A stretch of 64,000 bases of DNA from an uncultured bacterium (GTDB lineage: Bacteria > Abyssobacteria > SURF-5). Below, piece after piece: positions 14,899 to 31,887 of the stretch. A program made the translations under genes and the position numbers. The stretch lies in assembly GCA_964607485.1 (NCBI GenBank), contig CAZSKP010000001.1, forward strand, positions 128,001-192,000, in the 5' to 3' direction. Under the pieces are notes generated by a model, which saw only the letters and a list, made by a program, of their open reading frames with translations, did not search any database and had not been told where the DNA came from. Position 1 is the stretch's first letter. Each line of letters begins with the position of its first letter.

Positions 14899-15098
14899 GG
14901 AAGGCGGCTCCAGCCCACAACCCCGGCATTCCCCTCCCTGACTTCATTGTGCATGTTTCCGCCCCACTGAAGTGTAAAGAAGCAATACATGTGCCTCACT
15001 ATGCGTGCATCAAAATAGAGACGCGGCCGTGGCGGCCCGTACGCCGCGAGCGTCGCATCCAATTGATATAATAGGCTTTACGTAGGTTTGTGGGCTAA

Positions 15099-15114
15099 TG
15101 GCACAAAAAGTGCT
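15099..15114 (+). promoter_or_regulatory. Putative sigma54 (-24/-12) promoter
   Basis: TGGCACAAAAAGTGCT with GG-N10-GC spacing, 90 bp upstream of the response regulator. Confidence 0.45.
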
Positions 15115-15203
15115 CTTCTCGACATCGAGGCACAGGTATTTTTCTTAATATATGCTGTCGAATTCATAATACTCTTATCCGAAATCATTAAGGAGAGAAA
15201 ACA

Positions 15204-16142
15204 ATGAGTCGAAACATAGCAATCGTAGAAGATGATCACGATCTGGGCACCATACTGCGCAGCCGGCTTCACGGGGCCGGCTACCAGTGTGTCCTCATCC
15301 GCGACAGCGAGAAGGCCTTTCCCGTGATCAAGGAGAAAAAGCCCGATCTCGCGATCCTTGACGTCATGATGCCGAAGGTGAGCGGCTACGACCTCTGCCG
15401 TCAGATCAGACGCGACCCGCTGATCTTCAACACTCCCGTGCTCATGCTCTCCGCCCTCGGAAGCGAGCCGGAGATTCTGCATGCGCTGGAGCAGGGGGCC
15501 GACGACTATCTCGTCAAACCGTTCGATGTCGGCGTCCTGTTTTCCAAGGTCAAAACGCTTCTGGAAAAACATAGGCGTATCATGCAGACAAGCCCGCTCA
15601 CCGGGTTCCACGGCGGCGAGTACATCAAGAGGCTCATCACGAACAAACTGTTTCGGGACGAGCTTGTGGCCGCGTGTTACTTCACGCTGATGCATTTCGC
15701 GCCGTACGTCAAGGCTTATGGCGGCAACAAGCGCGATCGGGCGGTAACGCTGCTGGCCGACATCCTGAAGAAAGTCACTCAGGATACGGGAGTGTACGAG
15801 TGCGCGATCTCGCACATGGGCGGCCCCGACTTCATGGTGCTTCTGTCGGTCAAGGACTTCGAGAGATACTGCAACGAGGTCGTCTTGCGTTTTCGGAATC
15901 GGAGAAGCGCACTTTACGGCGGAGTGGACCTCGACCGCGGCGCGATAGAACTCCCGGCCGAGGGCGGCGGAGTGGCCGACTACCCCCTCATGGCCGTCGC
16001 CGTCGGAGTGGTCACCAACGAGCGCGCTAAGTTCAGAGACAGCGCTCAAATGGTGAAGGTCGCGGGCGAGGTAAATCGTCGCGCTCAGCGACAGCAAAGC
16101 AACGGCCACATCGATATCATGAGGGAAGCGATATTGCTCTAA
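15204..16142 (+). CDS. Response regulator: REC plus degenerate GGDEF domain
   Basis: REC motifs (VEDD, LDVMMP, LSA, KPF), then SPLTG...HMGGPDF in place of GGDEF. Confidence 0.88.
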   Translation: MSRNIAIVEDDHDLGTILRSRLHGAGYQCVLIRDSEKAFPVIKEKKPDLAILDVMMPKVSGYDLCRQIRRDPLIFNTPVLMLSALGSEPEILHALEQGADDYLVKPFDVGVLFSKVKTLLEKHRRIMQTSPLTGFHGGEYIKRLITNKLFRDELVAACYFTLMHFAPYVKAYGGNKRDRAVTLLADILKKVTQDTGVYECAISHMGGPDFMVLLSVKDFERYCNEVVLRFRNRRSALYGGVDLDRGAIELPAEGGGVADYPLMAVAVGVVTNERAKFRDSAQMVKVAGEVNRRAQRQQSNGHIDIMREAILL

Positions 16143-16400
16143 GTTGCCCCGCGTGCGGGCGGAACGATTAGCCGATCGTCCACCCACAACGTTGTTCAAG
16201 AGCCGCTCGCCGCGCGTGGGCGACATCGAGATGTCTTCTGCATACGCATGCAAGCCATCCCCCGCGGGATGGCTTTCGTGCTTCCACAGGGCTGTTTGGG
16301 CAATTACATATCTAACAATCTTCCTAATCACAGTTTGACTTCCATATTGCTTTCGTCCTACTCTAGATGGGCGAACCGTTCGTATATGGAAAGGGAGCCC

Positions 16401-17005
16401 ATGACCTCCTCCGGCAAGGAATCTGAAGAAACACTTGTCCGAGCGGCAAGTGAAGGAAGTGTGGATAGAGTCAAGGCGCTGTTGGAGACAGCCAGCGATG
16501 TGGATGCGAGAGACGATTATATAACCAAACCGCGCTTTTTGTGGCGGCGAATCGAGGTCACGCCGAAATAGTGAAGATTCTGCTGAATAGCGGCGCAGAT
16601 GTAAATGCAAAAGACGTCTATGGCCAGACGCCCTTGTTCATGGCAGCGCTGCAGGGATGGTCGGAGATATTCAATATTCTGCTGACGAGCGGCGCCGATT
16701 TCAACGCTAAGACTAACGATGGCATGACAGCACTCATTCCCGCCGCAGGGCAAGGCAAGTATGATATCGTGAGAGCGCTCATAGATAGAGGAGCGGATCC
16801 AAATGTGCGCACAAGGACGGGAACAACGGCCCTCCTATCTGCGTGCACGCGGGGACACACTGAGGTCGTGCGGTTGCTGCTGGAGCGGGGCGTCGATATG
16901 AACGTGCGAGAGAAATTCTTCGGACTGACCGCCTTGCGGGTCGCAAGGAATAAGGATCACAAGGAGATTGTCACGCTGCTCGAGGAGGCCGGCGCCGAGG
17001 AATAG
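16401..17005 (+). pseudogene. Ankyrin-repeat protein split by a 2-bp insertion
   Basis: Frame 1 (LVRAASEGSVDRVKALLETASDVDARDDY) joins frame 2 (NQTALFVAANRGHAEIVKILL...) if the extra AT at 16521-16522 in gattatataac is removed. Confidence 0.8.
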
Positions 17006-17159: not shown

Positions 17160-19043
17160 ATGAAAAGAACAAGCAGACTGGTCGTTTCTCTTGGAATACT
17201 GGCTGTCTCGCTCTGTATGCTTATCACGGCCAGTCAGTCATCTTTCGGAAGCGAGGGCGAGGGAAGCCGGAAGCGGAGCTTCTTGAAGGCGGACCTGCAT
17301 TGGAAGTTCTATGACCTTCTCGATAAATTCGACAAACACTTCAAGCTGCCTCTTAAGAAAATCAAGAACGGGATGCCGGACAGGTACGATAAGGTGGAGA
17401 TCGAGAAGAATGTTCGAATCCCGATGCGTGACGGCGTCGAGCTTTGTGCCAACGTTTACAGGCCGAAAACCGGCGGGAAATTTCCGGTCATTCTGACGAG
17501 GCTGCCTTACGGCAAGGACGAGTATTATTGCTCCATGCCTGCCGTGGGAAAATTCTGGGCCAAAAAAGGATATGTTTTCGTCGCTCAGGACGTTCGGGGA
17601 AAATTTTGCTCCGAAGGCGAGTTCGAGCCTCTCATCAATGAGGTTGAAGACGGATACGACACGCTCGATTGGATTTCAAAGCAGCCGTGGTGCGATGGCA
17701 ACATCGGGATGGAAGGAGAGTCGTATTTCGGCTACACAACCTGGGCCGCCGCGGTGAGCGGTCACCCAAGCCTGAAATGCATCTCGCCGATGGACACCGC
17801 GATGAATTTCCATGAGGTGATATTCCAAAATGGCGCGCTCGCACTCCAGACGGCGGGGCTGTATCCAATCCTAATGCATGGAAAAACGTACCAGAATGTG
17901 TTGCGTCTCGACCGAATGCATCTCCCCCTCATAACGATGGACGATGCTGCCGGCATCCCCACCCCAAGTTACGACACGCTCCTCAAGCATCCGTTTCGGG
18001 ATGAGGTCACCGAACAGTACAATCTGCGCAACAGACGAGAGCGCGTAGAGATTCCGATGCTTGTCGTGGCGGGCTGGTACGATGTGTTTCTCAAGACGAC
18101 CATTGATGACTGGTTCGTGCAAAGGCAGCGGAACATGCATACTGAAGCGAAAGGAAAACAATGGATACTCATATGTCCCTTCGACCACGAGTCAACGCCG
18201 GCGGGGACAAATCGGATAGGCAGGCTGGACATTGGCAATAAGAGCGCCACGACGATCTGGGAGATGAGACAGGAGTTCTATGACAAGTATCTGAAAGGAA
18301 TCGATAACGGCTTCGAAAAGAAACCACCGGTTCGGATTTTCGTCATCGGTGACAACGACTGGCGATATGAAAGCGAGTGGCCTCTGGCCCGGACGCAATA
18401 CGCGGATTACTACCTTCACAGCAATGGGAGCGCGAACACGTTGGGCGGAGACGGTGCCCTGAATCCGAGCGAGTCCATCGATGAGCCGTTTGACTCGTAT
18501 GTGTACGACCCTAAGGACCCTGTAAGAATCCACTATAATATTGATGTCTGGTCACTGGCTGCACAGATGAAGGATAGGCATCCTGTAGAGAAGAGAAAAG
18601 ACGTTCTCGTTTACACCAGCGTGCCTCTGGAGAAAGATACGGAGATCACCGGTCCGATTACGGTCACGCTTTTTGCCGCGTCATCGGCTGTGGACACGGA
18701 TTTTACCGCTGCCCTGATCGATGTTTTCCCGAATGGATATCTGCACTTGCTCCAGGAAGGTATACAGCGGGCGAGCTACCGCGAATCCGACAGAGAGCCG
18801 ACCTTTCTCCAGCCCGAAAAGATCTATCGGTACAACATCGATCTCTGGGCGACAAGTTATGTTCTGAAAGCCGGCCACAAGGTGCGCGTCGAAATATCAA
18901 GCAGCAACTTCGACCGATTCGACCGCAATCTGAACACGGGCGCCGAATTCGGCATGACTTCGGAAACGGTTAAAGCAACCCAGAATATCTACCACAGCGA
19001 GGAATACCCGTCGCACATAACTTTGCCGGTTATTCCGAGATGA
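17160..19043 (+). CDS. Secreted CocE/NonD-family serine hydrolase
   Basis: Signal peptide; IPMRDGVEL, RLPYGK, QDVRG, nucleophile motif GESYFG, GWYD; C-terminal GHKVRVEISSSNF. Confidence 0.93.
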   Translation: MKRTSRLVVSLGILAVSLCMLITASQSSFGSEGEGSRKRSFLKADLHWKFYDLLDKFDKHFKLPLKKIKNGMPDRYDKVEIEKNVRIPMRDGVELCANVYRPKTGGKFPVILTRLPYGKDEYYCSMPAVGKFWAKKGYVFVAQDVRGKFCSEGEFEPLINEVEDGYDTLDWISKQPWCDGNIGMEGESYFGYTTWAAAVSGHPSLKCISPMDTAMNFHEVIFQNGALALQTAGLYPILMHGKTYQNVLRLDRMHLPLITMDDAAGIPTPSYDTLLKHPFRDEVTEQYNLRNRRERVEIPMLVVAGWYDVFLKTTIDDWFVQRQRNMHTEAKGKQWILICPFDHESTPAGTNRIGRLDIGNKSATTIWEMRQEFYDKYLKGIDNGFEKKPPVRIFVIGDNDWRYESEWPLARTQYADYYLHSNGSANTLGGDGALNPSESIDEPFDSYVYDPKDPVRIHYNIDVWSLAAQMKDRHPVEKRKDVLVYTSVPLEKDTEITGPITVTLFAASSAVDTDFTAALIDVFPNGYLHLLQEGIQRASYRESDREPTFLQPEKIYRYNIDLWATSYVLKAGHKVRVEISSSNFDRFDRNLNTGAEFGMTSETVKATQNIYHSEEYPSHITLPVIPR

Positions 19044-19356
19044 CCAGCTCTGCGCACGCTCGACGGCTGTCGTTCTTCAGCGACCGCTCCACCAAACCGA
19101 AAAAGGGTCGGGCATTTGATAATTCTCACCCGGATGATATATACTGCGTTGGTAAGGTGACGCAGGATAAGAAGCGCAGCGCAAGGTGTCACGAGGAACG
19201 CGCATTCGAAGATGCGCAAGAGCGCACCAGGATGTAATCAACCCTGATTGGATTGCCCTGATGCCTTCCTGCCCGGTCGAAGTGAGGTCTCGTCCCTATT
19301 CCTGAATGGTCCCGGTTCAAAATCAGTAGATTGCCGTTAGTGGAACCAGGAAGCTT

Positions 19357-20994
19357 ATGAAAGAGAAACACGTCCGGCGAGAAGAACTGGTTGTCGCTCC
19401 ATGCAGCGAGGCATGCCCGGCCGGAATTGACGTGCCCAGATACATTCGAGCCATCAAGGAAGGAAAGTTCGACGAGGCTCTGGCCGTCATTCGAGAGCGG
19501 ATTCCGTTTCCTTCGATTTGCGGCTACGCATGCTACAGTCCATGCGAGGCCATGTGCGGCAATCGCCAGTTCGGCGAGCCGATTGCCATTCGCGGGTTGA
19601 AGAGGGCCGCCGCGGAACGAGGAGGCGACCTCTGGCGGAAGAGCCTTGCGATAGCACCCGATACCGGCAAGTGTGTGGCGGTAGTCGGGTCGGGCCCGAG
19701 CGGCCTGACCGCAGCCTACTATCTGGCGACGCTCGGCCACAAGGTGACCGTGATGGAAGCGCTTGAAGAGCCGGGCGGAATGATGCGCGTCGGCATTCCG
19801 GCGTATAGATTGCCCCGGGAAGCCTTGGACAGGGAGATCGGCTACCTGAGGGGAATCGGCGTTGAGATAAAGACGCGCATGCGAGTGGAAGCGGCCGACC
19901 GATTGTTTGAGCAGGGTTTCGACGCCGTCTATCTCGCCTGTGGCGCGCATCGGGGAACCACGCTCGGCATTCCCGGAGAAGATTCGCCGGGGGTAATTGA
20001 CGGCATCTCGTTCCTCAGAGAGGTCAACGAGGGGAAGACGGTCGCCGTTGGAAAGCGCGTGGCCGTTATCGGCGGCGGAAATACGGCCGTGGACGCCGCC
20101 CGCTGCGCGATTCGCCTGGGCGCCGGAGAGACGACCCTCATATACCGCAGGTCACGCGTCGAAATGACCGCATACGAAGAAGAGCTTGGCAGCGCGGTCT
20201 TCGAAGGGGTGACTCTGCATTTTCTCGCGACCCCGGTTCGTATCTCGCGCAAGGATACGGGACTGGAAGTAACGCTGACCCGCATGGAGCTGGGAAAACC
20301 CGATGCGAGCGGCCGGCGTAGCCCCGTCCCGATAAAGGACAGCGAATTCATCATGGAATTCGACACGGTGATCGTCGCCATCGGGCAGACGCCCGACATT
20401 CCGAAAAGCATGGGCGTCGCTCTGAATGAGAAGAATACCGTCGCGGCAGACGCTGAAACATTGGAGACGAACCGGCGAGGCGTGTTCGCGGGCGGAGACA
20501 TGGTTACCGGCCCGGCCTCCATCATCGAGGCTATCGCATGCGGGAGGAAGGCGGCGGCGTCCATAGACAAGTTTCTTGGCGGAACAGGACTGATAGACCA
20601 GGACCTCGCACCCGCCGAGGACGAAGTGGTGGTGATGGAATACGAGGCGCAGGACCAATCACGCATGTCTGTCCCTTGCGCGCCCCTCACAGACCGAGCG
20701 GTCGGCTTCCAGCCGGTCGAGGCCGGGTTGACCGAAGAGATGGCCGTCAGAGAGGCGGGGAGATGCAGGAGCTGCGACGCACGGCAATTTGACATAGCGG
20801 TTCACGCGGAGGGATGCAAGGAGTGCGGCTACTGCGTGGAAGTATGCGGTCTGGATGTGTTTGAGTTCGAGCAGAAGTTCAACAAGCGCGGATACAGACC
20901 CATCCTCGCCAAACATCGGGAAAGGTGCGTGGGATGCATGCTGTGCTTCTTCGCATGCCCTGATTTCTCAATCGATATTGCCGAAAAGAAATAA
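19357..20994 (+). CDS. GltD/NfnB-like FAD/NAD(P)H oxidoreductase fused to a C-terminal 2x[4Fe-4S] OFOR delta-like domain
   Basis: APCSEACP, CGYACYSPCEAMC, GSGPSGL, GGGNTAVD, YRRSR, FAGGD, EAGRCRSC, then CKECGYCVEVC and CVGCMLCFFACPDFSI. Confidence 0.9.
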   Translation: MKEKHVRREELVVAPCSEACPAGIDVPRYIRAIKEGKFDEALAVIRERIPFPSICGYACYSPCEAMCGNRQFGEPIAIRGLKRAAAERGGDLWRKSLAIAPDTGKCVAVVGSGPSGLTAAYYLATLGHKVTVMEALEEPGGMMRVGIPAYRLPREALDREIGYLRGIGVEIKTRMRVEAADRLFEQGFDAVYLACGAHRGTTLGIPGEDSPGVIDGISFLREVNEGKTVAVGKRVAVIGGGNTAVDAARCAIRLGAGETTLIYRRSRVEMTAYEEELGSAVFEGVTLHFLATPVRISRKDTGLEVTLTRMELGKPDASGRRSPVPIKDSEFIMEFDTVIVAIGQTPDIPKSMGVALNEKNTVAADAETLETNRRGVFAGGDMVTGPASIIEAIACGRKAAASIDKFLGGTGLIDQDLAPAEDEVVVMEYEAQDQSRMSVPCAPLTDRAVGFQPVEAGLTEEMAVREAGRCRSCDARQFDIAVHAEGCKECGYCVEVCGLDVFEFEQKFNKRGYRPILAKHRERCVGCMLCFFACPDFSIDIAEKK

Positions 20995-21030
20995 GCTCGA
21001 AAGAATTCGTATGAAAAGCGGACAGCATTC

Positions 21031-22203
21031 ATGAAACGTTATTTGGAGACGGGAAATTTCGCCGTGGCGCAGGCAGCCATCATGGCAGGCTGCGGAGCGT
21101 TCTGCGGCTACCCCATTACCCCCGCAACCGAGATAGCCGAGTCCATGTCGAAGCTCCTGCCGCGGTCGGGCGGATATTACGTTCAGGCGGAGGACGAGAC
21201 GGCCGCAATGCATCTGGCAATCGGCGCATCCCTCGGCGGGATGAAAGCCATGACTGCTACTTCCGGGCCCGGCTTCATTCTGTACGCCGACCCCTACGGC
21301 TGGGCCATCGGGTGCGAAATACCGCTCGTCGTACTGAACGCTCAGAGGGTGGGGCCGGTGAGCGGCATCACCGGCGCTCCCGGACAGGGCGAATTCTACC
21401 TGAGCCGCTATGTCACGCAGGGCGGCAACTTCGAGACGATAGTGCTCGCGCCAAGCACCGCTCAGGAAGCGTTCTCGCTGACGGTGGAGGCTTTCTATCT
21501 TTCCGAACGGTTCCGCACTCCCGTGACCATTCTGGCCGACCAGTTGATAACGGACGGCTGGGAGGACATCAGCATTCCCGAGACGGACAAGGAAAAGCAG
21601 GCGATGGGACTCAGGTTCGCCGAAAGAAAAGTGAACCCGGGACCTGTGTTCTATCCTCCCACGGACGAGATAGACATTCCTCCTGTTGTCCTGGGCAAGC
21701 ACACCGGCGCGCTCTGTTCCGACTGGACTCCGACCGAGGAAGGCTACGACATCGAGACCGTCGAGGCGCAGCACAAGCACGCGTACCGACTGATCTACAA
21801 GATACGCAATCACAAGGATATCATCACGCGGTATGAAACGCTTTTCCTCGACGACGACCCGGAGCTCATTGTCGTGTCTTACGGAACGCCCTCGAGGGTC
21901 GTGAAGACGGCCGTCAAGCAGGCGAGGGAAAAAGGCCGGAAGATCGGCATGATCAGGCCCATCACCCTGTGGCCGTTCCCCGACGAGCTGTTTAAGGCGA
22001 AGGCCGCGTATCTTTCGGTCGAACTGAATTATGACGGTCAGATGGTCCGAGAAGTGCAGAGAGCGACTCCGCACGACAGCAAAGTTCATTTCTTCGGCAA
22101 ATGCGGCGAGCTGCCCACGGTGGCCGAGCTGCACGACGTCTTCGACAAGCTTTTGGACGGCCGGCCGCTTCAGCGTCGGGAGTGGGAAACGGAGGCATGG
22201 TAA
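21031..22203 (+). CDS. 2-oxoacid:acceptor oxidoreductase alpha subunit (KorA/OorA-like)
   Basis: GYPITP, QAEDE, TATSGPG, QRVGP, RPITLWPFP. Confidence 0.92.
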   Translation: MKRYLETGNFAVAQAAIMAGCGAFCGYPITPATEIAESMSKLLPRSGGYYVQAEDETAAMHLAIGASLGGMKAMTATSGPGFILYADPYGWAIGCEIPLVVLNAQRVGPVSGITGAPGQGEFYLSRYVTQGGNFETIVLAPSTAQEAFSLTVEAFYLSERFRTPVTILADQLITDGWEDISIPETDKEKQAMGLRFAERKVNPGPVFYPPTDEIDIPPVVLGKHTGALCSDWTPTEEGYDIETVEAQHKHAYRLIYKIRNHKDIITRYETLFLDDDPELIVVSYGTPSRVVKTAVKQAREKGRKIGMIRPITLWPFPDELFKAKAAYLSVELNYDGQMVREVQRATPHDSKVHFFGKCGELPTVAELHDVFDKLLDGRPLQRREWETEAW

Positions 22204-23037
22204 GTGGACTACCTAGCGAGAAAACATCTGCGGTCGAGGAAAATACCGAGCACGGCGTGCTCGGGTTGCGGCCTCGGCCAGTGTCATAAGGCGCTGGTCA
22301 AGGCGATCGACGACCTTGGATACACTCGCAACGATATCGTCTGGGGGACATCCATCGGCTGCGCGGGCAGGCAGACGTTCGGCACATGGAGTGGCGACAG
22401 CTTTGCCGGAACTCACGGCCGCGTGTATGCGATCGCGCGAGGGCTCAGGCTTGCGCTGGCTCCGGAGAAGAAGATCGTCCTGTCCGTCGGCGACGGAGAC
22501 GCGTTCGGAATAGGCTTCAATCATCTTCTTCACGCGGCGAGAACGAACGCGCAGATGACCGTCATGGTATGCGATAATCTGGGCTACCAGTCCACCGGCG
22601 GGCAGTATGGCTGGACGACGCCGCAGGGAATCGTCACGGACAGCAGTCCCTACGGCATGTTCGAGCCGAACTGGGTCCAGCCGGAAAGGGACGTGCTGAT
22701 GATCGTGAAAGAGGCGGGCGCGACTTTCCTGGCGAGGCACGTGAGCATGGACGGGGCCGCCCTGGTGGAAACGCTCAGGAAGGCGATTCTGAATAACGGC
22801 TTTTCGCTGGTGCATGTCGTCTATCCGTGTACGACAAACTTCGGCAAGAATGCGCTGGGCTCGAGAAACGCCGTCGAGATATTTAAATGGATAAAGAGCC
22901 ACGCCGCTCCCCTGGGCAAGGAGAACGAGAACACCTTCTGGCGAACCGGCATATATTTTGATGCGAGCAATTCTAGGCCCGAATTTTCGCAGATGATGCG
23001 GGAAAAAGTCGCGGAGGTCCGCAAGAGAACGTCATGA
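22204..23037 (+). CDS. 2-oxoacid:acceptor oxidoreductase beta subunit (TPP-binding)
   Basis: CSGCG, IGC, THGR, GDGD TPP motif, TGGQ, PCTT. Confidence 0.92.
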   Translation: MDYLARKHLRSRKIPSTACSGCGLGQCHKALVKAIDDLGYTRNDIVWGTSIGCAGRQTFGTWSGDSFAGTHGRVYAIARGLRLALAPEKKIVLSVGDGDAFGIGFNHLLHAARTNAQMTVMVCDNLGYQSTGGQYGWTTPQGIVTDSSPYGMFEPNWVQPERDVLMIVKEAGATFLARHVSMDGAALVETLRKAILNNGFSLVHVVYPCTTNFGKNALGSRNAVEIFKWIKSHAAPLGKENENTFWRTGIYFDASNSRPEFSQMMREKVAEVRKRTS

Positions 23038-23567
23038 AGGAACGAACCGAGATACTCGCGAGCGGATTCGGCGGCCAGGGAGTCGTCAGGCTCGGCCAGA
23101 TCATCGGAGAGGCGGGCGTGAGGCAAGGCCTGCATGTCGCCATGCTCAAAAGCCACGGGACCGAGATGCGCGGAGGATATGTGAGAAGCCAGGTGGTGCT
23201 GTCCAGGGACGTCATCGACAGCCCCATCTGCGAATCGCCCGACTGCTTCATCGCTTTGTCAGGCGCGGCCTACAACCAGTTCAAGCATCTCATGCCGGCC
23301 GATGGCATCATCTTGTATGACCCCGCCTTTCTGGATGAGACGGACGCGGAGCTCAAGTGTCCGCAAAAGGCGATCCCGGCAAACGAACTGTCCGCAAACA
23401 ATTTCGGCAACCCGCTTTTTGCGAATTCCATCGTTCTCGGAGCCGTCGCCAGGCTCGTGGACGTATTGGACAAAGAGGTACTGCTGCAAAGCCTTCTGCA
23501 CGTCATGCCGAAGTTCCACCAACAGAACGCGGAGGCGTTTCAAATCGGATACGACTATGAACGCTGA
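23034..23567 (+). CDS. 2-oxoacid:acceptor oxidoreductase gamma subunit
   Basis: SGFGGQG, HGTEMRGG, ANSIVLGA and NAEAF motifs. Confidence 0.92.
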   Translation: MKERTEILASGFGGQGVVRLGQIIGEAGVRQGLHVAMLKSHGTEMRGGYVRSQVVLSRDVIDSPICESPDCFIALSGAAYNQFKHLMPADGIILYDPAFLDETDAELKCPQKAIPANELSANNFGNPLFANSIVLGAVARLVDVLDKEVLLQSLLHVMPKFHQQNAEAFQIGYDYER

Positions 23568-23618
23568 CCGGCCGGGCGCCGCCGCAGCTTCACGTATCGA
23601 GTAAACGGTTCCATTCAC

Positions 23619-25133
23619 ATGCGCACTATCAGACACATCATCGATGAAAGAGCAGACCTTCATCCCGATAAGGTCTATCTGCTCGCGCCCGAGGCGGGCC
23701 TGACGCTCACCTATGGCCGGTTGAGGGACGACTCGCTCGCGCTTGGCAGGTATTTGATGAAGCTGGGGCTCAGGAAGGGCGACAAGCTTTCGTATATGAT
23801 GGGCAACGGGTATCAGACCGCGAAAATCTTCCTCGGCGCCATGTATTCGGGATTCACGATAGCGCCTCTCAATCTCATGACGCAGTCGTCTCAGCTCGAG
23901 TATGTGCTCGCTCACTCCGACACGCGGCTCGTGTTCTTCACGAAGGAGCAAGAGGAAAAGCTGGGGAACGCCGCGGGCCGCGTGGATCGCCGCATAGAAC
24001 TTCTCAAGATCGACAACGATGCCGAAAACATCCTCCCCGCCAGGGAAGACCTCTCGGGCTTTGTTCTTCCGGAAGTGACCGAAGAAGATGATGCACTCCT
24101 GCTGTACACCTCCGGCACCACCGGCAAGCCGAAGGGCGTGGTCCTCTCTCACAAGAACATGGTCGCGGGAGGCCAATACACGGCCATGGCCCACGAACTC
24201 GGTCCGGACGACAGGGCCCTATGTTCGCTGCCCGTCTATCACATCAACGGCGCCGTGGTGACTGTGGTCGCGCCGCTGGTGAGCGGAGGAAGCGTGGTCA
24301 TGCCTCACAGGTTCAGCGTTTCAAGTTTCTGGCGGCTGCTCTCGGATTATCGCTGCACATGGTTCAGCGTGGTGCCCACCATCATTTCCTACCTTCAGAG
24401 CGCGACACAGCCTCAGGGAGCGGATCTCAACCTCGAGCAGGTGCGTTTCGGCCGTTCGGCCTCGTCGGCCCTGCCACCCGTTCTTCACAGGGCGTTCGAG
24501 GAGAAATTCAAGATTCCGCTCATTGAAACGATGGGGCTTACCGAAACGGCCGCGCCTGTGTTCTCCAACGCCCTCGACCCATCGGGAAGAAAGTACGGCT
24601 CGCCGGGGTGTCCGGTCGGGAACGAGGCGAAAATCGTTGACGAAAACGGCAGTGAGGCGCCTCGCGGCACTCATGGGGAGATCATGGTCCGGGGAGATAA
24701 TGTGATGAAGGGGTATTATAAGGCTCCGGACCTTACCGCAAAGAATATCGAGCCGGATGGATGGCTGCATACGGGCGATGTCGGATACATGGACAAGAAC
24801 GGCTTTGTCTTCGTTACGGGCCGGATCAAAGAGCTCATCATAAAGGGCGGGGAAAACATCGCGCCCAGAGAAATCGACGAAGCGCTTTATAGCCATCCCG
24901 CGGTATTGGATTGCGCCGCAGTCGGCATTCCCGACGGACACTACGGCGAGGAAATCATGTGCTGCGTGGTGCTGAAACCTGACTGCCGGGCAACGGAAGA
25001 GGAATTGCGAAGCCACTGCCTGCAGGCTCTGGGCGAATTCAAGACCCCGAAGGTCATAAAATTCCTCGAAAGCCTTCCCAAGGGACCATCGGGAAAGATT
25101 CAGCGCATAAAACTCCGCGAACTCGCTCAGTAA
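23619..25133 (+). CDS. AMP-forming acyl-CoA ligase, SauT (sulfoacetate-CoA ligase)/oxalate-CoA ligase-like
   Basis: YTSGTTGKPKG, LPVYHING, RSASSALPP, ETMGLTETAAP.FSN.LDP, KELIIKGGENIAPREIDEAL and PKGPSGKIQR; these subfamily strings recall SauT. Confidence 0.88.
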   Translation: MRTIRHIIDERADLHPDKVYLLAPEAGLTLTYGRLRDDSLALGRYLMKLGLRKGDKLSYMMGNGYQTAKIFLGAMYSGFTIAPLNLMTQSSQLEYVLAHSDTRLVFFTKEQEEKLGNAAGRVDRRIELLKIDNDAENILPAREDLSGFVLPEVTEEDDALLLYTSGTTGKPKGVVLSHKNMVAGGQYTAMAHELGPDDRALCSLPVYHINGAVVTVVAPLVSGGSVVMPHRFSVSSFWRLLSDYRCTWFSVVPTIISYLQSATQPQGADLNLEQVRFGRSASSALPPVLHRAFEEKFKIPLIETMGLTETAAPVFSNALDPSGRKYGSPGCPVGNEAKIVDENGSEAPRGTHGEIMVRGDNVMKGYYKAPDLTAKNIEPDGWLHTGDVGYMDKNGFVFVTGRIKELIIKGGENIAPREIDEALYSHPAVLDCAAVGIPDGHYGEEIMCCVVLKPDCRATEEELRSHCLQALGEFKTPKVIKFLESLPKGPSGKIQRIKLRELAQ

Positions 25134-25189
25134 ATTCTCCGGTCAAGCAATACCCTCGGCCACCGGTCATTGCCGCGCGGGCAAGCTCT

Positions 25190-25260
25190 CACCGGGAGAC
25201 AAAGCTCACTGAGAATCTTCCCCTCTTCCTTGTCTCTGAGCTCTCCGTGACCTCTGTGGC
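25190..25260. repeat. Degenerate 9-bp-unit palindromic repeat (CTCYGTG type)
   Basis: ctctgagct-ctccgtgac-ctctgtggc (25234-25260) with a weak complementary arm at 25190-25214, between convergent genes. Confidence 0.5.
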
Positions 25261-25274
25261 CAAACCTCCGCGCT

Positions 25275-25649
25275 TTACACCCTCCCGCCTTCCTGCGTCA
25301 GCTCTATCATCACGTTGTCGGGGCCGGCCACGAACGCGATCTTCACGCCTTCTCCCAGGCTCATCGGTTCCAGCATAAACTCCGCGCCCCTTTTCTTGAG
25401 TTCGGCGGCTGCCGCGTCGAGGTCGGCCACCCTGAACCCGAGGTGGTCGACCGACGTGCCCGCAGGCGGCCCGCTCGGCGGCTTGTCGTTGATAAGCAGG
25501 TGTGTCCCATCGAAGTCCACGACGATCATGTGCGTTCCGGCGACCTCTAACTCCCCGAATTTCTTGCCGCCGAATGTCGCGATGTAAAAGTCCGCCGCCG
25601 CGTTGACATCGGCGGAATTCAGGTGGACGTGGTCGAACTCGAATTTCAT
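25275..25649 (-). CDS. VOC (glyoxalase/bleomycin resistance) family protein
   Basis: ATG 25649 with AGGAGG RBS; FDHVHL, VDHLGFRVADL, AFVAGPDNVMIEL. Confidence 0.9.
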   Translation of the reverse strand: MKFEFDHVHLNSADVNAAADFYIATFGGKKFGELEVAGTHMIVVDFDGTHLLINDKPPSGPPAGTSVDHLGFRVADLDAAAAELKKRGAEFMLEPMSLGEGVKIAFVAGPDNVMIELTQEGGRV

Positions 25650-25775
25650 GCGTGTTCCTCCTTGGAGCTGCCTGTGCCTGAAGAAAGGTTGTTGGCGGGC
25701 CGCATTGTAACAGATGCGGGGCGAGCGAGTCAATTTTTCCTGTTTTTTCGGGCAAATATCGGAAATCTGTGCCGT

Positions 25776-25970
25776 GTGGGGCTATGTGGGGAATCGCATG
25801 CCTTTCCGGAGCCACGAGATTCCCGCCGTCGGACAGCCTGAGAATTTGCCATAAGTTGTTGAGTCATAGTATGTAAGGAAATGTGAGGATTGTGTGAGAA
25901 AGTTCTTGACAGTCGAGGGGCCCTGTGGTACAATGTGGGTTCAAGAGATAGGTCAGTGGGGAAATATGGG
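25776..25970 (+). promoter_or_regulatory. dcw promoter with MraZ-binding GTGGG direct repeats
   Basis: TTGACA (25906-25911), 17 bp, TACAAT (25929-25934) with extended TG. GTGGG/ATGGG boxes at 25776, 25786, 25935, 25956, 25966. Confidence 0.85.
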
Positions 25971-25981
25971 GACTCCCTCAA

Positions 25982-26422
25982 TTGCTACTATTCTCCGGAA
26001 CCTACAAATACTCCCTTGACGAAAAAAATCGCCTGATCATTCCCGTCAAATTTCGGGAGATCCTCAGTGCCGAAGGCGTCGATAAACTGTACCTCGTCAA
26101 GGGAGATTCTCACCTCTACGTCTTCCCGCTTCCGGTTTTCGTCGAACTCTCCGAAAAACTCAAATCCTGGGACTTCACCAAAGAAGCCAATCAAGACTAT
26201 GTTCGACTGCTCTTCTCCGACGCGTTCGACGTCGTGCTCGACAAGCAAGGCAGGGTCATACTGCGCAAAGAGATGTGTGACGAAGTCGGCATCGACCGTG
26301 AGGCTATCATCGTCGGCGTCCTGAACCGAATGGAAATATGGTCGCCTGAGCGGTGGAAAGAATTCCGAGGAAAGTCCACCCTCCGGGGATTCTCTGCGAA
26401 TCTTGATGCACATTCGCAGTAA
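25982..26422 (+). CDS. mraZ: Division/cell wall cluster transcriptional repressor MraZ
   Basis: LDEKNRLIIP and LDKQGRVIL AbrB-type repeats, RMEIWS; TTG start. Confidence 0.95.
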   Translation: MLLFSGTYKYSLDEKNRLIIPVKFREILSAEGVDKLYLVKGDSHLYVFPLPVFVELSEKLKSWDFTKEANQDYVRLLFSDAFDVVLDKQGRVILRKEMCDEVGIDREAIIVGVLNRMEIWSPERWKEFRGKSTLRGFSANLDAHSQ

Positions 26423-26467
26423 TAATAGCAGAACTTGGGGCGAACAGTCAAAGGAGGACAAGCCAAA

Positions 26468-26842
26468 GTGGGAGTCGAATTCGAGAAAGTGGATCGCGAA
26501 CACGTATCGGTGCTGAAAATCTCGGGCAACCTCGACACCTCCACCTCCAAGCTCCTCAAGAAAGCCCTCACGGAACTCATCAGAGAGGAGCACTACAACA
26601 TCGTGGTGGACATGAAGAAGGTGGTGCAGATCAACTACATGGGGGTCGGCACGCTCCTCGAGCGACTGAGGCAGTTGCGAAGGCTCAGCGGCGACCTGAA
26701 GCTCGCGGGCCTGAACAGGGTCACCCGCAAGGCCCTCAGCATGGTTGGCGCGTCGAAGGTTTTCGAGACTTACGACACCGAAGATGACGCGGTAGCGAGT
26801 TTCGCGGTCAGGGAGGAAGACGCGAAGGCCGTTGGCGTCTGA
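26468..26842 (+). CDS. STAS-domain (anti-sigma factor antagonist-like) protein lacking the canonical phospho-Ser
   Basis: AGGAGG RBS then GTG 26468; LKISGNLD, IVVDMKKVVQINYMGVGTL, GDLKLAGLN, FETYDTEDDAVASF. Confidence 0.88.
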   Translation: MGVEFEKVDREHVSVLKISGNLDTSTSKLLKKALTELIREEHYNIVVDMKKVVQINYMGVGTLLERLRQLRRLSGDLKLAGLNRVTRKALSMVGASKVFETYDTEDDAVASFAVREEDAKAVGV

Positions 26843-27809
26843 ACGGAATAATGCGGCAAGCGGTCCGGCCCATGCGACGGTTCTGCGAGAGGCGGCAGTT
26901 GACCTGCTCGCGTGTTCGCCGGGTAACGTGGTTGTGGACGGCACGGTCGGCGGCGGGGGGCACGCCGAGCTGATTCTCGAACGAATCGGCCCGACCGGCC
27001 GCCTGATCGGAATTGATTGGGACCGCAGGGCCATCGAGCTTGCGCGCGAGCGATTGGGCGCCGCGCCCAATGTTACGCTGGTTCGCGAAAATTTTCGGAG
27101 CCTGGCGGAGATATTGGAGCGCATGGGTTTGGCCGGGATGGACTCCCTGCTATTGGATTTGGGCCTCTCCTCATTTCAACTCGAAGAAGCAAACCGGGGT
27201 TTCAGCTTCAGGGCAGAAGGCCCTCTGGACATGCGGATGAGCGAGCGGATGCAGGCCACGGCGGCCGACATAATCAACACTTATTCCGAGCGAGAAATCG
27301 CAGACCTCCTGAGGAGATTCGGAGAGGAGCCGAATGCTCGGAGGATTGCGAAGGCAGTCGTCGGGCAGCGCGCAAAGGGCGCCATCCGCACGACGAGCGA
27401 GTTGGCCGATATCGTTCGGAGATGCGCGCCGCAGCGACCTCACCGCGCCAAGATAGACCCCGCCACAAGGACGTTTCAGGCGCTTCGCATCGAGGTCAAT
27501 TCGGAGCTCGACAATCTCCAAAACGTCCTGGACGACGGCATCTCATTGCTCAGGCCGAAGGGTCGCATATGCGTGATATCGTTTCATTCGCTCGAGGACA
27601 GGATAGTCAAGCAGACGTTTGCCCGGGCCGCTCGGGGGTGTGTCTGCCCGCCCGAGCTGCCGCAGTGCGTGTGCGGACGGAAACCCGTGTTGAGGATATT
27701 GACGCCGAAACCCGTCAGACCGTCGAAAGAGGAAGTTGGGGCGAATCCTCGTTCCCGCAGCGCCAAGCTGAGGGCCGGCGAGAAGGTTGCGGGGGAGACA
27801 TCGCATTGA
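26832..27809 (+). CDS. rsmH: 16S rRNA m4C1402 methyltransferase
   Basis: DGTVGGGGH, DLGLSS, GPLDMRM, TFQALRIEVN, SFHSLEDRIVK, NPRSRSAKLR. Confidence 0.97.
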   Translation: MASERNNAASGPAHATVLREAAVDLLACSPGNVVVDGTVGGGGHAELILERIGPTGRLIGIDWDRRAIELARERLGAAPNVTLVRENFRSLAEILERMGLAGMDSLLLDLGLSSFQLEEANRGFSFRAEGPLDMRMSERMQATAADIINTYSEREIADLLRRFGEEPNARRIAKAVVGQRAKGAIRTTSELADIVRRCAPQRPHRAKIDPATRTFQALRIEVNSELDNLQNVLDDGISLLRPKGRICVISFHSLEDRIVKQTFARAARGCVCPPELPQCVCGRKPVLRILTPKPVRPSKEEVGANPRSRSAKLRAGEKVAGETSH

Positions 27810-28312
27810 AGAGCACACAGAAAAAGAAAAAGCCGGACAAGAAAAAGAAAAGACGTCCGAAAAGCATCGCCAAGCGGAATCTGAAACATTCGCTCCGCTT
27901 TCTTCCCGCGGGTATTCTGCTTATGGTAACCGCCTTCATATATACGTGGCAGCATACCCGCCTGACCATCATCGTGCTTCCCATCGAAGACTTGAGGGCC
28001 AAGAAAAGAGACCTCATCAAACAGAACGATTCCATCCGCCTCCGCATCGAACAATTACAAGCTCCCGCACGCATCGAATCGATTGCACGCAACAAGCTGG
28101 GGATGGTCTCGCCGCAAAAATGGCAGGTGGTGGCTCTGGACGAGCCGACTCAACCGCCGGAAGCGGCCCCCGAGACAAACCAGCTGGCCGACCGCAGACC
28201 CCCGTCCGCTACAAAATCGGCCGGACTGTTTGGATTCCTGAAGAAACACGGAAGTCTTGGCAACACCTCGCAACAACACAAACCGCCGGAGACAACAGAG
28301 AAATCCGGTTGA
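27806..28312 (+). CDS. ftsL: Cell division protein FtsL
   Basis: TTG 27806 overlaps the rsmH stop. Basic N-terminus, one TM, leucine-zipper coiled coil and LQAPARIESIARNKLGMVSP; lies between rsmH and ftsI. Confidence 0.88.
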   Translation: MKSTQKKKKPDKKKKRRPKSIAKRNLKHSLRFLPAGILLMVTAFIYTWQHTRLTIIVLPIEDLRAKKRDLIKQNDSIRLRIEQLQAPARIESIARNKLGMVSPQKWQVVALDEPTQPPEAAPETNQLADRRPPSATKSAGLFGFLKKHGSLGNTSQQHKPPETTEKSG

Positions 28313-28354
28313 AGCAGGTTCTGTGTTTCATCCCGTTGGTTCGTAAGCTTAGCC

Positions 28355-30396
28355 TTGGAAAGCCTGAAGATGCGAGGAGACCTGGCATTCAAGTCTCCCG
28401 GCTCGGTTCTGGCCGGAGAAAAACTGGAGAGTCCCGGCAGATTCCGGGCCAAGCTGTGTCTGTGCCTGTTGCTCGCCGGATTCACGGCGGTGGGAATAAA
28501 GCTTGTGGACATCCAGGTCTTCCAATACGACTTCTGGGTCCGATACGTTGACGACCAGAGGAAGACCGCCATCATCATCTATCCCCAGCGGGGAACGATT
28601 TATGACCGCAACAAGAGGCCCCTGGCGACCTCGGTGGTGCAAGAGGTTCTCTGCGTGGTTCCGTCACGCGTCACCGACGTTGCGAAGCTTGCCGCCGCCC
28701 TGTCTCCGTATGCAAAGATGCCCGCCGGAAAAATTATCGAGAAGATTCGGAACACCCAGTTGTATCTGATATATCTGCGTCGGGGACTCGACGTGGAGAC
28801 CGTGGAAAAAATCAAAGCGATGAAGCTCGACGGCGTCGAGTTCCGCAGCGAAAGCTCGCGTCACTATCCCAAAGGTGTTCTTGCCAGCAACGTGATGGGT
28901 TTTGCAAATCTGGACAACAAAGGGTTGGAAGGACTCGAGTACAAATTCGACGCCCGACTTGCCGGAGAGGCTGGAAAGCAGATTGTAATCAAAGACAATT
29001 CGAGAAGAGAAATCGTGTCGCTTGCCCGAACGGTAAAGGAAGCGCGCGACGGCGACCATATCGTCTTGACAATCGACGAAATTATTCAGTATATTACCGA
29101 GAAGGCGCTTGACGGGATTGTGGAGTCGTTTTCACCCGATAGCGTCTCGGCGGTTGTGATAGACCCGAGAACGGGCGAAGTGCTGGCCATGGCGTGCAGG
29201 CCGACCTTCGTTCCCAATAAGCCGTCCACCTACAAGGCTGAAAGGCTCCGAAACCGCGTCGTAACGGATGTATTTGAGCCGGGCTCCTCGTTCAAACCGA
29301 TAGCGGCCGCTGCTGCGCTCGAGGGCAACGTGATCACTCCGGAAGATCGCGTGTACTGCGAGCTTGGCTTACTGCGATATCACGGCCATACCTTCCACGA
29401 CGTCCATCCCTTCGCCGAGATATCGTTCGCCGATGTGATAGCGCAGTCGAGCAACATCGGCATGATCAAGGTTGTAAGCCTGCTCGAGCCGCAGTACCTT
29501 TACAGCTACATCAGTGGTTTCGGATTCGGAAAGCTCACCGGAATCGACCTCCCCGGAGAATCTGCTGGAATCGTCCATCCGCCGTCGAAGTGGTCAGGCC
29601 TTTCAATGGGGTCGATCCCCATCGGCCAGGAAATAAGCGTGACATGTTTGCAGCTTGCGGTCGCCTTTTCCGCCATCGCAAACGACGGGGTCCTGATGAG
29701 ACCGTATCTGGTCTCGGAAGTCTTGAGTCCTAAATTGGAAACTCTCGAAAAGAACCGTCCCCAATCCGTTCGACCGGTGATAAAGCCAAAGACCGCAAAG
29801 AGTCTGAAGAAAATGTTGGAGCGCGTGGTAACTTCCGGCACCGGCGAGGAGGCGAGGCTCGCCGGGTACGATTGCGCGGGGAAGACGGGAACCGCGCAAA
29901 AGCCCGACCTCTTGAACGGGGGCTATTACGATCACAAATATGTCTCCGTATTCGCAGGATTTGTCTCGGCTGAGGACACTGTGGCCTGCATAGTCGTCGT
30001 CGCGGACTCGCCCAAGGGAAAGAAATATTACGGGGGACAAGTGGCTGCCCCCGCGTTCAAGGAAATCGCGCAGGGAATACTGAATCATCTCGAGATTCCC
30101 CCCGTGAAGCCCGAGGAGCAGCTTTCTCCCGAGCCCGACAAGCCGTTGATTGCCCACACTCCGGCAACCAAGGAAGCCTACACGCGACCCCTCGTTCTCA
30201 ACGACGTGGACGGCGTTCCCATAATGCCGGATGTCAGAGGGATGACGATGAGGGCGGTACTGGACTTATTGTCCGAATATTCCTCCCGCTTCGAGTTCGA
30301 GGGCTCGGGCGTTGCATTCCGTCAGGAGCCGGCTCCGAAGGAAAAGATATTGAGCGGGCACAAGTACCAGATCGCCTTCAAGAGAAGAGATGTCCG

Positions 30397-30400
<4 letters not shown>
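28355..30400 (+). CDS. ftsI: Class B penicillin-binding protein FtsI with C-terminal PASTA domain
   Basis: RGTIYDRN, EPGSSFK (SxxK), SSN, KTGTAQ, MPDVRGMT; exact start uncertain. Confidence 0.95.

Positions 30401-31887
<1,487 letters not shown>

Follow-up and report, generated by a model that had tools for sequence, protein, structure and literature searches.

The stretch of DNA examined here, called the window throughout, comprises 64,000 nt from an uncultured bacterium (GTDB lineage Bacteria; Abyssobacteria; SURF-5) and covers positions 128,001 to 192,000 of contig CAZSKP010000001.1 (C1:128001-192000) in assembly GCA_964607485.1, a genome of 4.70 Mb that is 97.5% complete and is designated G000. 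At window positions 19357-25133, five open reading frames (ORFs) follow one another on the + strand with intergenic gaps of 36, 0, -4 (an overlap), and 51 nt. They encode a flavoprotein fused to the delta-type domain of a 2-oxoacid:ferredoxin oxidoreductase (OFOR), the alpha, beta, and gamma subunits of this enzyme, and an AMP-forming acyl-CoA ligase (Table 1). An earlier note, made from the letters of this DNA alone, had described a tight operon, and the ORFs, their spacing, and their domain assignments all match that description. The note also linked these genes to the metabolism of sulfoacetate, which is the subject of this report.

The arrangement of OFOR and ligase genes is not due to chance, because the pairing recurs in two independently fetched collections. 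When the ligase was used to fetch loci from genomes, OFOR genes of the same type were found next to a ligase of the same family in 17 of 80 loci. When the alpha subunit was used to fetch loci from metagenomes, the two occurred together in 12 of the 39 informative loci, which are those with an alpha subunit of 65% identity or more and no less than 1.7 kb of DNA 3′ of the gamma gene. Gene calls in related loci were longest-ORF picks, with several shadow ORFs replaced, and context labels such as SauT or SauS-like rest on tblastn thresholds that we chose.

Table 1. Features of the operon and its surroundings, in window coordinates
Feature	Position	Strand	Remarks
NAD(P)H-type flavoprotein (NfnB/GltD-like) fused to OFOR delta-type 2x[4Fe-4S] ferredoxin domain	19357..20994	+	545 aa
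OFOR alpha subunit, divergent subfamily	21031..22203	+	390 aa; POR_N + PFOR_II
OFOR beta subunit (thiamine diphosphate, proximal [4Fe-4S] site)	22204..23037	+	277 aa; GTG start; TPP_enzyme_C
OFOR gamma subunit	23034..23567	+	177 aa; POR domain; 4-nt overlap with beta
AMP-forming acyl-CoA ligase, predicted SauT (sulfoacetate-CoA ligase) family	23619..25133	+	504 aa; AMP-binding + AMP-binding_C
Promoter-like site TTGATA-18-TATACT	19116..19145	+	sigma-70-like; consensus scan, 10/12 matches, a pattern match only; ~210 nt 5′ of first gene
CocE/NonD-family hydrolase	17160-19043	+	TIGR00976, 443 bits; directly 5′ of operon
VOC/glyoxalase-like small ORF	25275-25733	-	3′ of ligase; name from reading of translation
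Division and cell-wall (dcw) cluster	25982-31887 onwards		begins directly 3′ of operon
MraZ-like ORF	25982-26422		name from reading of translation
Small ORF in dcw cluster	26435-26842		
RsmH-like ORF	26832-27809		name from reading of translation
FtsL domain	within 27017-28312		family match
SpoVD/FtsI-type penicillin-binding protein	28355-30400		family match
MurE	30397-31887		family match

Ligase and oxidoreductase of the operon

The ligase has the two-domain architecture of ANL enzymes (PF00501, 271 bits; PF13193, 70.5 bits), and all five strings by which the earlier note likened it to SauT are present in its translation. Relatives in public genomes fall into tiers, with 62-79% identity in Desulfobacterota-type metagenome-assembled genomes (MAGs), 48-64% in Burkholderiales, Gammaproteobacteria, and one spirochaete, and at most 39% thereafter. 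Within the window's own genome, the 26 further matches listed are all at most 41% identical. In 36 of the 80 genome loci, a homologue of the acylating dehydrogenase SauS adjoins the ligase directly upstream, often accompanied by Xsc. All five of these neighbours that were tested exceed the SauS equivalog cut-off (NF047625; 650-768 bits versus 600), and one such locus (L060) also carries Xsc (956 bits versus 676) and Pta.

Phylogeny and residue conservation point the same way. On a tree of 76 sequences with seven paralogues from the window's own genome as the outgroup, the family forms a single clade of 65 rows, apart from the outgroup, with 99% support in the Shimodaira-Hasegawa-like approximate likelihood ratio test (SH-aLRT). 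The OFOR-linked ligases constitute a clade of 22 rows nested between two SauS-linked groups. When these 22 sequences were compared with 35 SauS-linked sequences, 165 alignment columns were at least 90% conserved in both groups, and 164 of them hold the same residue. Of these identical columns, 85 are family-specific, in that they are not conserved in the paralogues, and we take such residues as a proxy for the acyl pocket. By this measure, the OFOR-linked ligases give no sign of a changed substrate relative to SauT proteins linked to SauS and Xsc. No SauT-specific model appeared among the best 25 of 108 NCBIfam families. Membership in the SauT family rests on gene context and residue conservation because the characterized SauT of Cupriavidus necator stands outside the comparison. 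On that basis, the prediction that the ligase belongs to this family and is a SauT orthologue, as the note had supposed, is well supported.

The best PDB match of the ligase is a plant oxalate-CoA ligase (5ie0, 300 bits). A reading of the enzyme as an oxalate ligase was dropped, because the relatives linked to SauS and Xsc, at 48-64% identity, are far closer than any oxalate enzyme. Elsewhere in the same genome, a 1948-aa open frame with two ANL-domain matches (C39:33196-37878) may be of the nonribosomal peptide synthetase or polyketide synthase type.

The OFOR carries the full module set of its superfamily, namely alpha, beta with thiamine diphosphate (ThDP), gamma, and delta with 2x[4Fe-4S]. 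In the alpha subunit, the YPITP motif and the Arg of QR(x)GP are retained, and the translation of the beta subunit contains a GDGD...N motif and four Cys residues. In this set and these motifs, the enzyme resembles the Kor/Oor 2-oxoglutarate:ferredoxin oxidoreductases represented by 8ys5, 6n2n, and 1yd7, and its alpha subunit matches 1yd7 at 212 bits and 8ys5 at 205 bits. Unlike Kor/Oor enzymes, however, its subunits fall below every curated NCBIfam cut-off (alpha, PRK08659, 334 bits versus 411; beta, PRK09628, 161 versus 364; gamma, PRK08537, 111 versus 235), its delta subunit is fused to an NfnB-like flavoprotein, and its neighbours are sulfonate enzymes.

The window's genome has nine POR_N genes. 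Two canonical Kor-type paralogues, on contigs C8 and C29, pass PRK08659 (576 bits versus 411), and the remaining ones include Por-, Vor-, and Ior-type enzymes. On a tree of 90 alpha sequences, the window's protein falls in a clade of 86 rows that is split from its own Kor and Vor paralogues with 100% SH-aLRT support. Judged by these scores and this placement, the OFOR is a distinct, divergent subfamily and not a canonical 2-oxoglutarate enzyme, which bears out the note's suspicion. A more distant cassette occurs in five metagenome loci (L142, L144, L146, L148, and L167), whose alpha subunits are 54-60% identical; instead of the fused flavoprotein they show only a short delta-like match, and the ligase that comes next is a different ANL enzyme (31-34% identity).

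The flavoprotein comprises Fer4_20, Pyr_redox_2, and a C-terminal Fer4 dicluster (Fer4_7), which correspond to two N-terminal [4Fe-4S] sites, an FAD/NAD(P) domain, and a delta-type ferredoxin domain at residues ~468-541; Cys motifs are visible in the translation. It scores 477 bits on PRK12771 (cut-off 516) and 52 bits on OGOR_delta at residues 468-541. In the PDB it is most closely matched by 9bov and 8oh5, in their NfnB-like parts, and by NfnA 9n5u. The resemblance of this electron module to NfnB and GltD points to NAD(P)H as the donor.

Comparable assemblies are known. Phenylglyoxylate:NAD+ oxidoreductase (PadEFGHI) and the 2-oxoglutarate:NADP+ oxidoreductase of Azoarcus each combine an OFOR core with a GltD/NfnB-type flavoprotein and a ferredoxin subunit, and the Pad catabolic cluster also encodes an acid-CoA ligase. 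The likeness to the window's enzyme is one of architecture only. Scores on the Pad equivalogs are far below their cut-offs (PadG 69, PadI 45, and PadE 33 bits versus 700, 700, and 300). Unlike in PadEFGHI, the flavoprotein and ferredoxin of the window form one polypeptide, and the direction proposed for them below is reductive.

Distribution and gene neighbourhoods of the oxidoreductase

The note observed that SauS is absent from the window, and the absence extends to the whole genome, where the best NF047625 match (301 bits versus 600) lies in an 878-aa AdhE-type frame. The same genome yielded no Xsc (best 349 bits versus 676) and, by tblastn, no Pta, so the canonical SauSTU/Xsc pathway, which needs SauS and Xsc, is missing. 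Neither TauA, ComC, ComA, nor DsrA was found there, and no other sulfonate gene was seen.

This pattern holds more widely. Twenty genomes carry the OFOR (G000-G019), 18 of them with an OFOR-ligase locus (G000-G017). SauS exceeds its cut-off in none of the 20, and Xsc does so in one (G005). Conversely, among 35 genomes defined by a SauS homologue beside the ligase, none has the OFOR and 31 have Xsc above the cut-off, with two more carrying truncated Xsc matches; if G024, which is flagged as unpublished, is left out, the counts become 0 of 34 and 30 of 34. A further genome without the OFOR, G020, combines SauT and Xsc with a SauS-like gene that scores 516 bits, under the cut-off. The apparent replacement of Xsc by the OFOR is a strong pattern, yet it is confounded by phylogeny and by the incompleteness of MAGs. 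Six of the 18 OFOR-ligase genomes, among them G001, which is a complete chromosome, lack any glycyl-radical enzyme. DsrA exceeds its cut-off in 11 of the 18, although not in the window's genome, and sulfite respiration was set aside for the window's organism for this reason.

Over ~100 loci, the OFOR is found next to enzymes predicted to form sulfoacetyl-CoA (SauT, a SauS-like dehydrogenase, or a SucCD-like ligase), and genes for the uptake of taurine or sulfoacetate are often present as well. Among the 39 metagenome loci, one of the 12 with a SauT-family ligase also has a SauS-like gene. A SauS-like acylating dehydrogenase alone neighbours the OFOR in eight loci, a SucCD-like ADP-forming ligase in four, and another ANL ligase in six; nine have none of these, and the contexts are interspersed across the alpha tree. 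For the OFOR-adjacent dehydrogenases, SauS is the top NCBIfam family in eight of eight cases, at 508-536 bits, under the cut-off of 600. The SauS-like genes are followed by a class-III aminotransferase, here called Toa-like, whose best PDB match is the taurine:2-oxoglutarate aminotransferase 6jix (308 bits versus 266 for the next). SucCD-like ligases adjoin the OFOR in L098, L102, L113, L145, and L152. Three loci (L103, L105, and L129) combine the OFOR and SauT with a Toa-like aminotransferase and an aldehyde:ferredoxin oxidoreductase (AOR). Three sets of feeder genes can therefore be distinguished at OFOR loci: Toa with SauS-like, Toa with AOR and SauT, and Toa with AOR and SucCD-like.

A role in central metabolism was considered as an alternative. 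The OFOR might be an NAD(P)-linked oxidoreductase for 2-oxoglutarate or another dicarboxylic 2-oxoacid, with neighbours that handle succinyl-CoA (SucCD, an acylating succinate-semialdehyde dehydrogenase, and an aminotransferase of the γ-aminobutyrate (GABA) type), and the ligase link would then be incidental or the ligase would use a dicarboxylate. The nearest solved OFOR relatives are indeed 2-oxoglutarate enzymes, the best PDB match of the SauS-like protein is the acylating succinate-semialdehyde dehydrogenase 8cei, and genes for citrate synthase, glutamate dehydrogenase, and glutamate mutase lie near some loci. The SucCD-like genes sit at the SucC and SucD thresholds (379 versus 376 and 354 versus 353 bits), a borderline result that can be read either way, and the window's genome has a separate SucCD that is 37-48% identical to them. 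We regard this explanation as improbable. The conserved ligase columns argue against a dicarboxylate substrate, the OFOR subunits stay below cut-offs cleared by two of the genome's own paralogues, and the aminotransferase is closest to a taurine enzyme and reaches only ~250 bits on the GABA-transaminase model, whose cut-off is 507. It is also at odds with the TauA gene described next.

Genes for uptake and regulation lead in the same direction as the feeders. In the complete genome G019, a TauA above the equivalog cut-off (381 versus 304 bits) stands beside an operon of OFOR, SauS-like, and aminotransferase genes. TctABC genes of the tripartite tricarboxylate transporter (TTT) type lie beside or inside the operon in seven of 15 annotated OFOR-ligase loci (L014, L009, L016, L020, L026, L027, and L030), and tblastn added Tct genes at four more. 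Two lineages of the TctC binding protein were found, each common to OFOR loci and SauS/SauT loci: that of L026 is 60-67% identical to TctC of L060, L063, L065-L067, L069, and L072, and that of L014 is 46-69% identical to TctC of L073, L037, L040, L042, L046, and L081. A sigma-54 activator precedes the operon in nine of 14 annotated OFOR-ligase loci. The link between the OFOR and enzymes predicted to form sulfoacetyl-CoA is well supported by these neighbourhoods. Several feeders that would end at sulfoacetyl-CoA, together with importers, argue that the OFOR consumes this compound, and a role of this kind is supported at the level of gene context.

Two known pathways provide the closest comparisons. 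According to PMC10413351, all known sulfoacetate routes run by way of SauS and then either Xsc or IseG. The SauT-SauS-Xsc-Pta route of C. necator H16, as summarized there, shares with the window's operon an AMP-forming SauT-family ligase that would yield sulfoacetyl-CoA, uptake genes of the TTT type (here in relatives), and, for the products proposed below, the acetyl-CoA level and sulfite at the same cost of one NAD(P)H. Unlike that pathway, the window's genome lacks SauS, Xsc, and Pta, and where the proteobacterial loci have SauS, the OFOR loci have a four-subunit OFOR with its own flavoprotein. The SauCD-SauS-TauF-IseG route of Bilophila wadsworthia, described in the same paper (PMC10413351), is likewise an anaerobic route through sulfoacetyl-CoA, with a TTT system, SauXYZ, as the reported sulfoacetate transporter, and its cluster has parallels in the SucCD-like and SauS-like genes beside relatives of the window's OFOR. 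The cluster as described there does not include an OFOR; an isethionate intermediate is not implied for the OFOR loci, and six of the 18 OFOR-ligase genomes lack a glycyl-radical enzyme.

The direction of flow through the operon can also be questioned. The note had allowed that the OFOR might run in reverse. It would then be a sulfopyruvate:NAD(P)+ oxidoreductase that makes sulfoacetyl-CoA, which would go on either to sulfoacetate, with a gain of ATP through the ligase in reverse or a SucCD-like enzyme, or to sulfoacetaldehyde, through a SauS-like reduction that would bypass the sulfopyruvate decarboxylase ComDE. Oxidative decarboxylation is thermodynamically easy when NAD(P)+ is the acceptor, and this is the direction in which the known NAD(P)-linked OFORs, the Azoarcus 2-oxoglutarate enzyme and PadEFGHI, operate. 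The ADP-forming SucCD-like ligases at five loci are typical ATP-yielding enzymes, the beta subunit ComE exceeds its cut-off in none of the 21 genomes (G000-G020), and the window's genome lacks sulfite respiration. Reverse flow is nevertheless a poor fit to the uptake systems and to several feeders converging on sulfoacetyl-CoA. The importers have TctC proteins shared with sulfoacetate-degrading loci at 46-69% identity, the TauA equivalog and the sigma-54 activators also speak against it, all three feeder sets would have to run backwards toward taurine, and the window's genome yielded no source of sulfopyruvate. We consider it very improbable.

With ComE lacking in this way, ComDE was set aside as an exit for sulfopyruvate. 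Several other neighbours were recorded in the two complete Desulfobacterales chromosomes, G018 and G019, where the OFOR-SauS-like operon is present and the ligase is at a separate locus. There the SauT-family ligase lies beside a type-II citrate/2-methylcitrate synthase (L013 and L017), and in L013 it also adjoins a D-2-hydroxyacid dehydrogenase, an amidase, and an NMT1/SsuA-like binding protein. The G019 chromosome contains a sulfonate island (L178, 1961-16012) in which TauABC, an HpsN-like gene of the histidinol-dehydrogenase family, and a DegT-family CuyC-like gene share one strand, with the flavoprotein-OFOR-SauS-like-Toa-like operon on the other. The comparison for the HpsN-like and CuyC-like genes draws on PMC12814064.

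Proposed reaction and competing fates of sulfoacetyl-CoA

We tentatively prefer, at somewhat under an even chance, the reading that the operon is a self-contained module for sulfoacetate catabolism in which a SauT ligase supplies an OFOR that reductively desulfonates sulfoacetyl-CoA. The ligase would make sulfoacetyl-CoA from sulfoacetate, ATP, and CoA, a step well supported by the sequence comparisons. The four-subunit OFOR would then consume sulfoacetyl-CoA with two electrons from its own NAD(P)H-oxidizing flavoprotein-ferredoxin subunit, as the gene contexts suggest, and would replace the SauS and Xsc (and Pta) steps of the known pathway. In detail, ThDP would attack the thioester with release of CoA, and a two-electron reduction of sulfoacetyl-ThDP would give the 1-hydroxy-2-sulfoethylidene-ThDP enamine, the same intermediate that Xsc forms from sulfoacetaldehyde. 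Elimination of sulfite would leave acetyl-ThDP, from which the acetyl group would pass to CoA. The net reaction would be sulfoacetyl-CoA + NAD(P)H + H+ → acetyl-CoA + sulfite + NAD(P)+. In relatives, taurine could feed the same enzyme through a Toa-like aminotransferase and a SauS-like acylating dehydrogenase run oxidatively, or through AOR and a SauT or SucCD-like ligase.

Energetic considerations bear directly on this choice. By textbook potentials, the couple between acyl-CoA plus CO2 and a 2-oxoacid is found near -500 mV and that of NAD(P)H near -320 mV. Reduction of an acyl-CoA to the level of an aldehyde or hydroxyalkyl-ThDP lies near -410 mV and is achieved by SauS with NADPH. Sulfite elimination is the exergonic step of Xsc, and an OFOR normally hands acetyl-ThDP to CoA. 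Desulfonation is favoured because the Xsc-type intermediate, at about -410 mV, would be reachable with NADPH as in SauS, and the resulting acetyl-ThDP could be passed to CoA. It would require no further enzyme, which matches the absence of any extra conserved enzyme gene beside the operon in the annotated loci. It would also account for the closed redox loop of Toa-SauS-like-OFOR operons and fits the complementary distribution of OFOR and Xsc (TIGR03457). From that complementarity and the mechanism, we infer an Xsc-like release of sulfite from a ThDP-bound C2 sulfonate. The two enzymes are otherwise unlike, as the OFOR belongs to an unrelated fold family and Xsc is of the acetolactate-synthase type, uses no electrons, and has phosphate as its acceptor.

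The main competitor is the reaction originally proposed in the note, in which the OFOR reductively carboxylates sulfoacetyl-CoA to 3-sulfopyruvate, with subsequent conversion to sulfolactate or cysteate and desulfonation by a SuyAB- or CuyA-type lyase encoded elsewhere. Carboxylation is the canonical reverse reaction of OFORs, the nearest solved relatives (8ys5 and 6n2n) act on 2-oxoglutarate, which sulfopyruvate closely resembles, and the alpha subunit retains the Thr of YPITP and the Arg that we take to bind the 2-oxoacid carboxylate in other OFORs. Candidate lyase genes exist as well: the GD_AH_C family is present in 15 of 18 OFOR-ligase genomes, and G018 and G019 have split SAF and GD_AH pairs of SuyAB-like architecture. 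G019 also has the HpsN-like and CuyC-like genes beside its operon, so named after PMC12814064.

Other evidence is less favourable to carboxylation. By the potentials given above, it would be uphill by ~25-35 kJ/mol if NAD(P)H were the donor, and the operon encodes no electron module other than the NAD(P)H-type flavoprotein. No gene for handling sulfopyruvate or sulfolactate, whether dehydrogenase or lyase, is conserved beside the loci examined. GD_AH_C has no match in G009, G010, and G015, and G004, G012, and G016 have only a fused form of 510-540 aa. The window's genome lacks ComC and ComA, and the one GD_AH gene that it has is surrounded by genes resembling those for aconitase and methylisocitrate lyase; this gene matched no SuyB-specific model, and no SAF partner was found for it. 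We judge carboxylation unlikely, although it is the most serious of the alternatives. Of the note's proposal, then, the action on sulfoacetyl-CoA is upheld by the linked feeders and importers, and carboxylation to 3-sulfopyruvate fits poorly with the electron supply and the neighbours. The note had also suggested looking for sulfonate genes near homologous operons; TauA, Toa-like, SauS-like, Tct, and, in G019, HpsN-like and CuyC-like genes were found there, and no conserved sulfolactate dehydrogenase or lyase.

Several observations weigh against desulfonation. We know of no OFOR that catalyses a beta-elimination, and the retained Thr and Arg are at least as compatible with the usual chemistry on a 2-oxoacid. 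The likeness between sulfopyruvate and 2-oxoglutarate and the distribution of GD_AH_C genes, including the split SAF pairs, keep the carboxylation route and its sulfolactate exit in play. By evolutionary analogy, moreover, one would expect an enzyme for sulfopyruvate that arose from one for 2-oxoglutarate, because SauCD appears to derive from SucCD, and SauS from acylating succinate-semialdehyde dehydrogenase (8cei being the best PDB match of the SauS-like proteins). The NfnB-like flavoprotein is not special to this OFOR, because a second such gene follows a canonical Kor-type OFOR in the same genome (G000 C29:57146-60673, L091, cut at the contig end), and OFORs linked to NAD(P) may be nothing unusual in this organism. 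The replacement pattern sets Desulfobacterota-type genomes against Proteobacteria, so phylogeny confounds it, and the characterized SauT, SauCD, and SauZ sequences stand outside the comparisons. The window's genome itself lacks a dissimilatory sulfite reductase to deal with the sulfite and lacks TctABC or any other TTT transporter for uptake.

If desulfonation is nonetheless correct, it would matter beyond this organism. The metabolism of sulfolipid, of sulfoquinovose, and of animals yields sulfoacetate and taurine in abundance, and in anoxic habitats their sulfur ends as sulfide. To our knowledge, the described routes all cleave the C-S bond with Xsc or a glycyl-radical lyase. Many of the Desulfobacterota-type genomes considered here have the ligase and uptake genes and neither cleaving enzyme, and carry the conserved OFOR instead. 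It is quite possible, although the balance lies against it, that C2 sulfonates have a third, unrecognized desulfonase that cleaves the C-S bond, in addition to Xsc and the glycyl-radical lyase for isethionate, namely an OFOR-family enzyme that splits sulfoacetyl-CoA with NAD(P)H. The OFOR seems to stand in for the two enzymes known to break down small sulfonates where sediments are free of oxygen. The sulfur cycle would thereby gain a new route, and in many uncultured anaerobic bacteria of sediments, sulfoacetyl-CoA would become the hub through which sulfoacetate and taurine are broken down.

Even the broader claim that the OFOR handles sulfoacetyl-CoA would fill a gap in genome-based predictions of sulfonate respiration, extend the OFOR family by a new class of substrate and perhaps by a new type of reaction, and provide a set of marker genes with which sulfonate turnover could be followed in sediments. 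The note knew of no description of such a route, and our literature search, which did not extend to subscription journals or figures, also found none for an OFOR acting on sulfoacetyl-CoA or sulfopyruvate.

Genes flanking the operon

The CocE/NonD-family hydrolase immediately upstream of the operon has no relative in any of the 17 OFOR-linked loci, and weak matches (25-26%) occur in four other ligase loci (L036, L051, L054, and L057). The VOC/glyoxalase-like ORF downstream has no homologue in related loci by tblastn; a glyoxalase gene lies just 5′ of the operon in L012. Three long ORFs on the opposite strand, at 15078-16610 (-), 25189-25815 (-), and 25988-27124 (-), are probably shadow frames, as indicated by their translations, their lack of a family match, and their overlap with better genes. 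On the 3′ side of the operon, the dcw cluster extends from its MraZ-like ORF through MurE and onwards.

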